Assembly: GCA_041687695.1 (NCBI GenBank) | Contig: JAWLBL010000026.1 | Location: forward strand, 1 to 64,000 | DNA: 64,000 nt | Direction of reading: 5' to 3' | Source of the DNA: Myxococcota bacterium | Lineage (GTDB): Bacteria; Myxococcota_A; UBA9042; PHBI01; JAWLBL01 | Part shown: positions 1 through 13,949 of the stretch, in pieces | Layout of the letters: each line of letters opens with the position of its first letter | Position numbering within the stretch: position 1 is the first letter of the stretch | Position numbers and translations under genes: made by a program | Notes under the pieces: generated by a model | What the model was told of the DNA's origin: nothing | The model's input: only the letters and a program-made list of their open reading frames with translations | The model's database searches: none

Positions 1-100
1 CCCAATCCCCACCCCCACCCCGGTCCGCTTGCGGTCCCATGCCTTGACGAATAGGCTTCCGCCATCGTTCGGGACACCGACCGTCAAGGGACCGGGGAAC

Positions 101-6811
<6,711 letters not shown>

Positions 6812-6812
6812 C

Positions 6813-8071
6813 ATGCGCCTGCTGCACACGTCCGACTGGCACCTCGGGCACACGCTGCACGCGGTGAGCCGTGACGAGGAGCACGCCCGGTTTCTGGGCT
6901 GGCTCCTCGACACGCTCGCGCGAGAGGCGGTCGACGCGCTGGTCGTGGCGGGGGACGTCTTCGAGACGGCGAACCCGCCGGCGTCGGCCCAGGGGGCGTG
7001 GTACGGCTTCCTGGCCGAGGTGCGGGCGCGCCTGCCGAACCTGGACGTGGTCGTCGTGGGCGGCAACCACGACTCGGCGGCCCGGCTGGACGCGCCGCAG
7101 CCGCTGCTGGACGCCTTCCGGGTGCACGTGGTCGGCGGGCTGCCGCGGTCCGACGGGCTGAAGGTGGATCTGCAGCGGCTGGTGGTGCCGCTGCGCGACG
7201 CGCGCGGGGACGTGGCGGCCTGGTGCGTGGCGATGCCGTACCTGCGGGTCGCCGACCTGCCCAGCGGCGGCGGGGAGGGCGGCGAGGACCCGCTGATCGC
7301 CGGGGTGCGCCAGGTCTACACGCTGGCGCTCGAGGCGGCGCGGGCCCTGCGGCAGCCGGGGCAGGCGCTGGTGGCGACCGGGCACTGCTACATGGTCGGC
7401 GGGGCGGTCAGCGAGCTGAGCGAGCGCAAGGTCCTGGGGGGCAACCAGCACGCGCTGCCGGTCGACGTGTTCCCCGACGACGTGGCGTACGTGGCGCTGG
7501 GGCACCTGCACCTGGCGCAGCGCGTCGGCGGGCGCGAGCACGTCCGCTACTCGGGCTCGCCGCTGCCGCTGTCGCTGGACGAGGCTGCCTACCCGCACCA
7601 GGTGCTGCTGGTCGAGCTGGAGGGCGAGCGGCTGCGCGAGGTGCGGCCGCTGCGGGTCCCGCGGACCGTCGAGGTGCTGCGGGTCCCGCAGGACGGGCCG
7701 GCGCCGCTGGAGGCGGTGATCGCGGCGTTGGGGGCGCTGCCGGCGGCCGGAGAGGTCGAGCCGGGGCGCGAGCCGTTCCTCGAGGTGCGGGTGGCCCTGG
7801 ACGGGCCCATGCCGGGGCTGCGGCGCGCGATCGAGGAGGCGCTGGTCGGCCGCGCGGCGCGGCTGGTGAAGCTGTCGGTGAGCTACGGCGGCGACGGACG
7901 GACGCTGGCCGAGGCGCGGCCTGCCGTCGAGCTGGGCGATCTCGCGCCCGAGGACGTGTTCCGGCGGCGGTACGCGCACTTGCACGGCGAGGCCCCGCCC
8001 GCGCCCGAGCTGCTGGCGGCGTTCCACGAGCTGATCGAGCGCGTCGCGACACAGGGCGAGGGAGGCGCGCC

Positions 8072-8075
<4 letters not shown>
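6813..8075 (+). CDS. sbcD: Exonuclease SbcCD subunit D
   Basis: HTSDWHLG, AGDVF, GNHDS and ALGHLH metallophosphoesterase motifs; upstream of sbcC. Confidence 0.95.
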
Positions 8076-11797
<3,722 letters not shown>

Positions 11798-11865: not shown

Positions 11866-12549
11866 ATGGTCAACAAACTCCACGTGTCCCGGCATGGCCT
11901 AACACCATGCCCCACCTGCAAGACCCACATCCAGGTCGCCGCCGCGCCGGCCGAGACCCGCTGCGTGTTCTGCGGGACCGCGGTCGCGCCCGGCGCTTCG
12001 GGCGACGCCACGTCGGGGCTCGGCCGCTTCCTCAGCCAGGGGCGCAGCAGCCTCCTCGCCGCCTCGATGCTAGGCCTGGGCACCATCGCGGCTTGCGACA
12101 CCGAGGAGGGCGCGGCGGTCGCCGAGGACGGCTTCGTCTCCGACGCCCCGGTCGGCGACGTCTACGGCTTGCCGCCGGACGCGTTCGAGGGCGACCTGAA
12201 GCAGCCGGACGACTCCGAAGCCGAGACTTCCGAGCCCGACGCGTCCCAGCCCGACGCCGCGAAGCAGCCGGACGTCCCTGACGCCCCGATGTACGGGCTG
12301 CCGCCCGACGTCTACGGGCCCGACGCCGACCAGCCGGACGCGTCCAGCGCCGACGCCATCGAGGACGTCGCCGTCGCCGACGAAGGGCCGCTGCCGCAGC
12401 CGCTGTACGGCCTGCCGCCGATCGAGGACGCCGGCCCGACCCACGACGTGCGCGACGACGCCGACGAGGACGCCGCCGAAGACGCCACGCAGGGCAAGGA
12501 CGACATCGTCTTCATGCCGCTGTACGGCCTGCCCCCCGGGGCCGAGTGA
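11866..12549 (+). CDS. Putative multi-site RiPP/spliceotide-type precursor: N-terminal CxxC..CxxC, lipobox-like segment, acidic region with five X-Y-G motifs
   Basis: CPTC...CVFC; LLAASMLGLGTIAAC; VYGLPP, MYGLPP, VYGP, LYGLPP, LYGLPP; stop overlaps the rSAM start (GTGA). Confidence 0.8.
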   Translation: MVNKLHVSRHGLTPCPTCKTHIQVAAAPAETRCVFCGTAVAPGASGDATSGLGRFLSQGRSSLLAASMLGLGTIAACDTEEGAAVAEDGFVSDAPVGDVYGLPPDAFEGDLKQPDDSEAETSEPDASQPDAAKQPDVPDAPMYGLPPDVYGPDADQPDASSADAIEDVAVADEGPLPQPLYGLPPIEDAGPTHDVRDDADEDAAEDATQGKDDIVFMPLYGLPPGAE

Positions 12550-13949
12550 CCGCGGGCCGCCCGCCCATCGGCGCCGCCCCCGAGGGACCGGAGGGGCTCG
12601 GCGCGAGCAGCGAGGGAGGGCAGCGCAAGCTCCTGTTCGACGGCGATCCCGGCAAGCTCGTCCGGAGCGCCCGGGCCGAGGACCAGGCGCGGCCGCACCC
12701 GCTGTACTGCGTCTGGGAGATCACGCTCGCCTGTGACCTCGGCTGCCGCCACTGCGGCTCGCGCGCCGGCAAGGCGCGCCCCAGCGAGCTGACCACCGAC
12801 GAGTGCCTCGACGTCGTGCACCAGCTCGCCGAGCTGGGCATCCGAGAGGTCACCCTCATCGGCGGCGAGGCCTACCTGCGCCCCGACTGGCACGTCATCG
12901 CCCGCGAGATCCAAGAGCTCGGGATGGTCTGCGGCATGACCACGGGCGCCCGCAACCTGACGCAGGAGCGCCTCGAGCAGGCCGTCGACGCCGGCCTGCG
13001 GGTCATCTCCATCAGCCTCGACGGCCTCGAGGCCACCCACGACGCCGTCCGGGGCGCCCGCGGCTCGTGGCGCGCCGCCGTCGCCGCCGCCCGCCGCGTC
13101 GCCGCCAGCCCGATTCGCCTCGCCTGCAACACCCAGATCAACCGCCTGTCGCTGCCCGAGCTCCCCGGCCTCGCCGATCTCCTCGGCGACCTCGGCGTCA
13201 CCGCCTGGCAGATCCAGCTCACCGTGCCCATGGGCAACGGCGCCGACCGCCCCGAGCTCCTGCTGCAGCCCTACGAGCTGCTCGAGCTCTTCCCGCTGCT
13301 CGCCTGGCTCAAGCGCGACAAGCTGGCCCCGCGCGGCGTGCAGCTCTTCCCGGGCAACAACATCGGCTACTTCACGCCCTACGAGTCTCTCCTGCGCTAC
13401 GGCGGCGACCGCGGCGCCCACTGGGCCAGCTGCTCGGCCGGCAAGTGGTCCCTCGGCCTCGAGGCGGACGGCAAGATCAAGGGCTGCCCCTCGCTGCCGT
13501 CCAACGCCTACACCGGCGGCAACATCCGCGACGTCAGCATCCGCCATGCCGTCGAAAATGCTCCCGAAATCAACCACATCCAGCGCCGCACCCGCGACGA
13601 CCTGTGGGGCTTCTGCCAGGGCTGCTACTACGCCGACGTCTGCAAGGCCGGCTGCTCGTGGACCTCGCACGTCTTCTTCGGCCGCACCGGCAACAACCCG
13701 TACTGCATCCACCGCGCCATGGAGCACGAGCGGCAGGGCGTGCGCGAGCGCCTGGTCCAGGTCGAGCGCGCGCCGGGCGAGCCCTTCGACAATGGCCGCT
13801 TCGACATCGTGGTCGAGCCCATCCCCGAGGGGGACGACGCGGCCGCGCCCACCATCGGCGGGCTGCCCCTGGACGAGGTGATGGCCGTCACGCGCGAGCG
13901 CGGCTCCGTCTGGAGCAAGGCCCAGCTGGTCGAGAAGCTGAAGGCCTGA
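12546..13949 (+). CDS. Radical SAM/SPASM peptide maturase, splicease (PlpX)-like
   Basis: VWEITLACDLGCRHCGSRAG (CxxxCxxC), LIGGEAYLR, SPASM cysteines CSAG..GCP..CQGCYYADVCKAGC..NNPYC. Confidence 0.88.
   Translation: MTAGRPPIGAAPEGPEGLGASSEGGQRKLLFDGDPGKLVRSARAEDQARPHPLYCVWEITLACDLGCRHCGSRAGKARPSELTTDECLDVVHQLAELGIREVTLIGGEAYLRPDWHVIAREIQELGMVCGMTTGARNLTQERLEQAVDAGLRVISISLDGLEATHDAVRGARGSWRAAVAAARRVAASPIRLACNTQINRLSLPELPGLADLLGDLGVTAWQIQLTVPMGNGADRPELLLQPYELLELFPLLAWLKRDKLAPRGVQLFPGNNIGYFTPYESLLRYGGDRGAHWASCSAGKWSLGLEADGKIKGCPSLPSNAYTGGNIRDVSIRHAVENAPEINHIQRRTRDDLWGFCQGCYYADVCKAGCSWTSHVFFGRTGNNPYCIHRAMEHERQGVRERLVQVERAPGEPFDNGRFDIVVEPIPEGDDAAAPTIGGLPLDEVMAVTRERGSVWSKAQLVEKLKA

Follow-up and report, generated by a model that had tools for sequence, protein, structure and literature searches.

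Splicease systems, in which a radical S-adenosylmethionine (SAM) enzyme with a SPASM domain acts on X-Y-G sites of a precursor, have been described in several forms. Closest to the gene pair considered here are the type I systems PlpX/PlpY/PlpA and PcpXYA of Pleurocapsa (PMC11414181, PMC11002830), the GDL-motif/DUF1843 type (TIGR03913) and the binary RhaX/RhaA system (type II) from Rheinheimera (PMC11414181, PMC11626197). What spliceotides natively are and do is described as still elusive (PMC9811515), and protease inhibition is their sole activity reported in the literature used (PMC11626197, PMC10849128). We analyzed a stretch of 64,000 nt (the window) on the forward strand of contig JAWLBL010000026.1 (GCA_041687695.1) from a Myxococcota bacterium with a genome of 7.97 Mb and 73% GC. 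It contains a precursor gene followed by a splicease-type enzyme gene, and on balance we favor a two-gene spliceotide system that would combine splicing with lipidation and yield a lipoprotein.

The splicease-type gene pair and described systems

The two genes and the elements recognized within them are listed from upstream to downstream.

11866..12549, +, substrate (precursor) gene, 227 amino acids, with a zinc ribbon, a signal-like helix, Cys77 and an acidic tether with five YG sites
11908..11973, +, C4 zinc ribbon (C15, C18, H21, C33, C36), proposed splicease-docking module; from invariant Cys, the model and related enzyme ribbons
12040..12096, +, Arg, hydrophobic helix and lipobox-like IAAC, residues 59–77, with Cys77 as proposed lipidation site; from alignment and genome comparison
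12160..12168, +, site 1, V99-Y100-G101 (VYGLPP)
12289..12297, +, site 2, M142-Y143-G144 (MYGLPP)
12310..12318, +, site 3, V149-Y150-G151 (VYGPD), off-consensus and predicted to be unmodified or poorly modified
12403..12411, +, site 4, L180-Y181-G182 (LYGLPP)
12520..12528, +, site 5, L219-Y220-G221 (LYGLPP), close to the C-terminal end
12546..13949, +, splicease-type radical SAM/SPASM enzyme gene, 467 amino acids; from TIGR04103/TIGR03913 scores, trees and fold model
12732..12755, +, CxxxCxxC radical SAM cluster motif (C63, C67, C70); from sequence and alignment
13431..13706, +, SPASM region (C296, C314, C357, C360, C366, C370, C387); from sequence and alignment

The substrate and enzyme genes are coupled: the stop codon of the former shares the sequence GTGA with the GTG start codon of the latter, an overlap already reported in the initial annotation of this DNA and borne out by the coordinates of the two open reading frames (ORFs). 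The GC content at third codon positions is 0.94 in the substrate ORF and 0.97 in the enzyme ORF, which fits real genes at 73% GC.

The enzyme scored 514 bits with TIGR04103 and 485 bits with TIGR03913, and the next-best model reached 151 bits; models of cofactor-maturation enzymes (PqqE, NirJ, AhbC/D, MftC) gave 83–125 bits. We take TIGR04103 to be the same family as IPR026482. PlpX has been placed in IPR026482 (PMC11002830). PF04055 matched with 71.8 bits and PF13186 with 19.6 bits, below its cut-off of 21.5, and the Cys residues of the cluster and of the SPASM region are invariant in an alignment of 59 enzymes. Judged by eye, the motifs at the start, in the middle and in the SPASM region that the supplement of PMC11414181 prints for PlpX, PcpX and RhaX are also present in the window enzyme, in keeping with the resemblance to the PlpX group suggested in the initial annotation from the start and end motifs. 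Its sequence is 53–55% identical to three cyanobacterial type I enzymes (L036, L038, L073), 49% to the GDL-type enzyme L069, and 24–30% to three other SPASM-like paralogues in its own genome.

PlpX itself is in neither of our two trees; L036, L038 and L073 stand in for its family. L036 and L038 exceed the TIGR04103 cut-off and have NHLP or Nif11 precursors as neighbors; L073 carries the TIGR04103 annotation, and L069 passes TIGR03913. The frameshifted L057 was left out of the trees. A quick tree of 73 rows with long outgroup branches, in which L007 was trimmed, placed the window enzyme in a mostly myxobacterial clade of 44 rows (support in the Shimodaira–Hasegawa-like approximate likelihood ratio test, SH-aLRT, 97). 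The nearest neighbor of this clade is Mesorhizobium, followed by the GDL clade (SH-aLRT 89), and all of these form one group with the type I enzymes (SH-aLRT 99). The grouping was repeated in a tree of 39 rows, with support of 95 for the splicease group and 91 for the GDL sister relation. By profiles and trees, the window enzyme thus belongs to the splicease clade, between the type I and GDL-type families, as the term splicease-like in the initial annotation had implied, and does not cluster with PqqE, NirJ or Ahb.

The predicted structure of the enzyme has a mean predicted local distance difference test score (pLDDT) of 93, and its nearest folds are PqqE, SkfB and SuiB; a close relative with a solved structure was found neither by sequence nor by fold. 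Its closest relatives are mostly Myxococcota bins, and the ESM Atlas yielded three unnamed Myxococcota clusters, with recognition below threshold.

With type I the pair shares a radical SAM/SPASM enzyme at the identity given above and several XYG sites per precursor, with Met or Leu at X. It differs in that the enzyme reaches 514 bits against a cut-off of 725, in that the substrate has a leader of zinc-ribbon and lipoprotein type instead of the Nif11/NHLP leader matched by the precursors at L036 and L038, and in that an opposite-strand gene 10 bp downstream of the enzyme gene leaves no room for a Y-protein gene. The GDL type is the sister clade (SH-aLRT 89 and 91) and has a related zinc ribbon and helix. 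There, however, the ribbon is found on the C-terminus of the enzyme and not on the N-terminus of the substrate, and the precursors are helical peptides of ~60 amino acids, unlike the window substrate; the window enzyme scores 485 bits against a cut-off of 591.75, and the window proteins have no DUF1843 match. RhaX/RhaA likewise consists of two genes with a leader that brings the activating element, but it has a double-glycine leader and a released peptide where the window pair has a ribbon, a lipobox and a long acidic tether. At the sequence level, then, the broad features of a spliceotide system are present (CxxxCxxC, SPASM, grouping, adjacent XYG precursor), in a form that is neither type I nor GDL type.

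The maturation route proposed below resembles that of the DAG-RiPPs DybA and NedA, for which it was shown that precursors of peptides that are synthesized ribosomally and modified post-translationally (RiPPs), modified by oxidative enzymes that depend on multinuclear non-heme iron (MNIO enzymes), can mature through the lipoprotein pathway via Lgt, LspA and Lnt; NedA also has repeated core motifs (PMC13056109). The difference is that these systems are described for MNIO enzymes only, the main text of that paper containing no mention of spliceases or radical SAM enzymes, and that they have a normal N-terminal signal, compared with a proposed signal behind a folded ribbon here.

YG-rich proteins beside PlpX-like enzymes were mined by Scott et al. 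2022 (Chem 8:2659; as summarised in PMC10849128) in 189 genera. Because the enzyme is so common in Myxococcota, it is rather likely that the window's type of substrate and enzyme is already among the splicease-precursor types of that study. We searched the literature, largely without subscription papers, and found neither a splicease precursor of ribbon or lipoprotein type described there nor the single-chain fusions and the ribbon borne by enzymes that are presented below.

The substrate family, its YG sites and its zinc ribbon

The substrate has exactly five Tyr (positions 100, 143, 150, 181 and 220), each followed by Gly; four of these sites read (V/M/L)YGLPP and the fifth, at Y150, VYGPD. 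The translation agrees here with the initial annotation, including its acidic spacers: the region past Cys77 is acidic and of low complexity, with 27% Asp+Glu and 2.6% Lys+Arg. Given a Gly frequency of 0.086, five of five Tyr before Gly corresponds to p ~5e-6, with the duplicated repeats being non-independent. The protein has five Cys (15, 18, 33, 36 and 77), and no Pfam or NCBIfam family matched it at cut-off. The N-terminal CxxC...CxxC ribbon formed by the first four and the unusual distance of Cys77 from the start were absent from the initial annotation.

A leader profile was built from 82 seeds that had the ribbon pattern and at least one YG downstream, so that selection for one YG is built in. 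With it, ribbon ORFs were detected at 50 of 65 loci, 89 in all; among the 15 others are systems of cyanobacteria, Mesorhizobium and Acidobacteria whose precursors are of another kind, as well as truncated contigs. Past the Cys, 194 of the 209 Tyr in this family are followed by Gly (11% Gly overall), and still ~112 of 127 when one YG per seed (82) is removed. The leaders are nearly free of Tyr (3 in 4,436 residues). The sites follow the consensus (V/Q)-P-x-Y-G-(G/A/I/L/V)-P-P and number from one to five in a protein; the last YG lies at most 15 residues from the protein end in 62 of 83 members. Four ORFs have no site: one is an enzyme, one a doubtful frame, and two have YA. None of ten ribbon or transmembrane-type substrates scanned received a Pfam or NCBIfam name at cut-off. 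YGLPP is also found in a Nif11 precursor next to a type I enzyme, and five relatives of the substrate end in PF11617 repeats (putative metal-binding).

Y150 departs from this consensus. It has Pro two residues past Tyr, where Pro is not among the seven commonest residues in the family, and is only seven residues away from Y143. In PcpA, two MYG splice sites have been described, though the printed core also holds IYGP (PMC11414181), and one DYG of RcsA is unmodified (PMC11626197). That described spliceases skip some YG sites (PMC11626197) weighs against taking each YG as modified. Because of this and of its off-consensus sequence, Y150 is the probable exception, and four modified sites are probably likelier than five. 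The initial annotation had proposed modification at up to five sites.

This substrate family, with zinc ribbon, helix, Cys, acidic tether and YG cores, is widespread in Myxococcota and extends beyond this genome. In a set of 31 related genomes, a strong enzyme match and a strong leader match occur in the same six, two of these being records already present as L009 and L010. At E 1e-7, the enzyme was detected in 40 of 151 genomes of the phylum and the leader in 25; the enzyme is found in 24 of the 25 leader-bearing genomes, compared with a base rate of 40/151, with related genomes in these counts being non-independent. Of the 16 genomes with the enzyme only, 12 neighborhoods were inspected: in six of them a ribbon substrate lay below threshold, two contained other YG proteins, and the remaining four yielded none by the filters used. 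The survey of gene pairs in Myxococcota and the check for YG beside enzyme homologs that the initial annotation had called for therefore both gave positive results, with YG cores recurring beside the enzymes and co-occurring with them genome-wide.

A second pair is present in the genome of the window at C14:22927-24464(-), with an enzyme 64% identical to that of the window, and two orphan substrates at C25:43262-43606(-) and C15:195161-195763(+). In the latter, a Tyr comes right after the lipobox Cys (as CYG), and the C-terminus bears an additional domain. Matches of the substrate found by tblastn on three further contigs (C23, C5, C7) were not recovered as ribbon substrates; those on C23 and C5 are lipoprotein-like tethers. 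A search for longer proteins bearing the leader scored none, which is weak evidence.

All four Cys of the ribbon are invariant in 57 of 57 aligned rows, and the ribbon is modeled with a pLDDT >90 at residues 11–40. We did not assign it to a named ribbon fold, as the model resembled only RanBP2/NZF-like fingers at Z ≤3.2, which is too low. The starting clue to its role was that two substrates weakly match the C-terminal end of TIGR03913. A ribbon profile built from substrates matches the C-terminus of all four GDL/DUF1843-type enzymes (L063, L069, L070, L071), which end in a ribbon and helix related to the substrate leader, as well as the N-terminus of the Tropicibacter enzyme L072 inside the window's clade, where ribbon and helix are present without lipobox or YG. 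No other enzyme among 66 matched the profile except the frameshifted L057; the Nostoc type I enzyme and the window enzyme gave no match. When searched against 70,162 sequences, the profile ranked four own-genome substrates and five enzymes as the top nine (17.5–39.7 bits; next 14.3 bits). The reverse ribbon search argues less well for this relation: it returned two own-genome substrates first but weakly (E 0.006 and 0.5), and the window's own substrate was not in the top 20.

The occurrence of the ribbon on both enzymes and substrates is, judged from these profile matches, a new observation. In described systems, the activating helix may sit on PlpY, on the leader, or be fused to the enzyme (PMC11414181). 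Because the related ribbon is fused to the C- or N-termini of enzymes and the activating helix is portable in this way, the ribbon and helix of the substrate probably constitute a module that docks on the enzyme and activates it. The leader, seen as lipoprotein-like in the initial annotation, retains that part but opens with a zinc ribbon, apparently at the service of the enzyme.

Several loci deviate from this general arrangement. L072 (L072:2180-3802) lies on the Tropicibacter oceani plasmid NZ_CP124618.1 next to other radical SAM genes, a phosphotransferase and two peptidases, and we found no obvious YG precursor near it. Three ribbon substrates lie downstream of a long-branch enzyme at L053:6305-8034, two of them with YA, not YG. 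Two Polyangiaceae loci (L046, L048) have arrays of up to ~10 short ribbon substrates around one enzyme. In Acidobacteria (L045, L047, L049, L055), enzymes near type I accompany a different precursor, which has an N-terminal charged helix, an Arg-rich membrane segment and PVYGGP repeats, in some cases with an added domain.

Proposed lipidation and mechanism, and rival explanations

A Cys after the hydrophobic stretch is found in 85 of 87 family members, and Cys77 is invariant in alignment A2. It is preceded at position -1 by A, G or S in 81/85 cases, the ten residues before it are uncharged in 79/85, and a loose lipobox pattern is matched by 76/85. The part of the profile that covers helix, Cys and tether retrieves ordinary lipoprotein-like N-termini from the same genome. 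All ten of these that were inspected begin with Met and a short basic stretch, continue through a hydrophobic helix to A/P-A-C and have the same kind of acidic tether; the substrate therefore looks like a local lipoprotein start with a ribbon placed in front and YG cores in the tether. The host has lspA and lnt above cut-off. We did not favor a Tat signal since the family has one conserved Arg and not a twin pair. Together, the conserved Cys, the small residue at -1 and the host genes speak for the putative display as a lipoprotein that the initial annotation had thought probable.

Further information came from a more distant enzyme (L104:1477-3066, genome G002; 266 and 253 bits on the TIGR04103 and TIGR03913 models), whose C-terminus runs into a hydrophobic helix, a lipobox-like Cys and YG cores. 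A search with this tail, a query that itself selects for such tails, yielded 40 proteins (P0019-P0058), in 39 of which the SPASM region is followed by helix and Cys and then by YG cores. In these tails, 195 of 227 Tyr are followed by Gly, mostly as (D/E)YG in Cys-rich units. Eleven fusion proteins formed a clade of their own (support 100) in the 39-row tree, and because this clade is outside the splicease group their chemistry is less certain; we consider them candidate self-modifying lipoproteins. A survey of 201 genomes of the phylum detected close fusion-type enzymes in 21, the window's genome not being among these. The main objection to lipidation of the substrate is eased by the fusions, in which an internal helix and Cys recur behind a large folded domain.

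We propose the following sequence of events. In the cytoplasm, the zinc ribbon of the substrate and the helix after it would, with reasonable probability, dock on the enzyme and activate it, like PlpY or the leader helix of RhaA. The enzyme would then very likely excise tyramine (C8H9NO, 135.07 Da) at X-Y-G, most likely at the four YGLPP sites, and splicing would with equally high likelihood leave alpha-keto-beta-amides derived from Val, Met, Leu and Leu. Quite likely, the same helix would subsequently take on the function of a type II signal inside the chain: the latter would be exported unfolded, and at Cys77 Lgt would attach the lipid, LspA would cleave and Lnt would acylate, so that these housekeeping enzymes would stand in for a dedicated protease and transporter. 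As a possible function, held with less than even confidence, the 151-residue acidic, disordered and membrane-tethered chain may display several keto-amides as inhibitory warheads against serine or cysteine proteases of the envelope.

Several points weigh against lipidation. The lipobox Cys lies 37–76 residues past the first ribbon Cys, far beyond a normal signal peptide; the strict lipobox is found in only 24/85 members and 2/87 are without the Cys; the helix was modeled at pLDDT <60; host lgt is present (E 1e-18) but under its cut-off; and residues +2 and +7, which are lipoprotein sorting signals (PMC3222651), vary across the family. The substrate could then be spliced and not lipidated, with the helix being only an activating leader or an uncleaved anchor and the product being cytoplasmic, anchored in the inner membrane or released by a general protease; the Tropicibacter enzyme, which keeps ribbon and helix without a lipobox, indicates that the helix can persist without export. 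We regard this outcome as unlikely in view of the near-invariant Cys with A/G/S before it, the ordinary lipoprotein-like N-termini retrieved by the profile, and the recurrence of helix and Cys at an internal position in 39/40 single-chain fusions. Less likely still is a different radical chemistry on the substrate Tyr, such as cross-linking or cleavage, by an enzyme that has diverged from the characterized spliceases. It would fit with an enzyme that misses both curated cut-offs and with the replacement of YG by YA in some relatives (L053), and we know of no characterized member of the window's enzyme clade; against it, the type I and GDL enzymes bracket the window enzyme in the trees, the cluster and SPASM Cys are invariant, and the target motif matches that of PcpA (PMC11414181) and of a Nif11 precursor.

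Given both splicing and lipidation, the keto-amides might also serve as covalent cross-linkers or metal ligands of the envelope or matrix instead of protease inhibitors, which we judge doubtful. The multivalent sites on a long acidic tether, the PF11617 repeats of the five relatives, the Cys-rich cores of the fusion clade and the description of the keto group as uniquely electrophilic (PMC9811515) are compatible with such a role. However, all spliceotides assayed in the literature used inhibit proteases and need the keto-amide for it (PMC11626197, PMC10849128), and the substrate-like P-x-[keto]-G-x-P-P context would suit a protease active site.

More broadly, and tentatively, Myxococcota may use spliceases for a class of keto-amide-armed lipoproteins in which a folded cytoplasmic module precedes an internal lipoprotein signal. 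This module would be either the mobile, enzyme-activating zinc ribbon, found on the enzyme C- or N-terminus and on the substrate N-terminus (window type), or the radical SAM enzyme itself, which would splice its own tail, export this tail and be severed from it by LspA (fusion clade). If true, this would extend RiPP–lipoprotein hybrids from MNIO to radical SAM enzymes. For lipid-anchored products, membrane and vesicle fractions, not the culture supernatant, would be the place to search, in a phylum with the enzyme in 40/151 sampled genomes. The mobile ribbon would be a natural counterpart of engineered leader–enzyme fusions (PMC11414181), enzymes acting at multiple sites of a disordered tether could serve protein labeling, and with the single-chain relatives one gene would suffice for a direct test of cis-splicing.

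Genes surrounding the pair

Upstream, the pair is flanked by SbcD- and SbcC-like genes (6813-11797, +) and downstream by a hypothetical gene on the opposite strand, 10 bp beyond the enzyme gene. As stated in the initial annotation, no protease or transporter genes adjoin the pair among the annotated flanking genes. We rejected SbcC/SbcD and the downstream gene as parts of the system because they had no tblastn match beside 64 related loci. Among neighboring ORFs, the largest recurring clusters resembled antisense frames of the enzyme or synteny within Polyangiaceae. No sigma-70 promoter match was found at the locus, and the one terminator-like site, on the minus strand, is at chance level; no sequencing run is listed for this region. 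Elsewhere in the window, a 2260-amino-acid Cys/Asp-rich protein (29-6811, +) has many PF11617 repeats, a repeat also present on some substrates, and another radical SAM gene (PF04055; 17872-19212, +) belongs to a different unnamed family.

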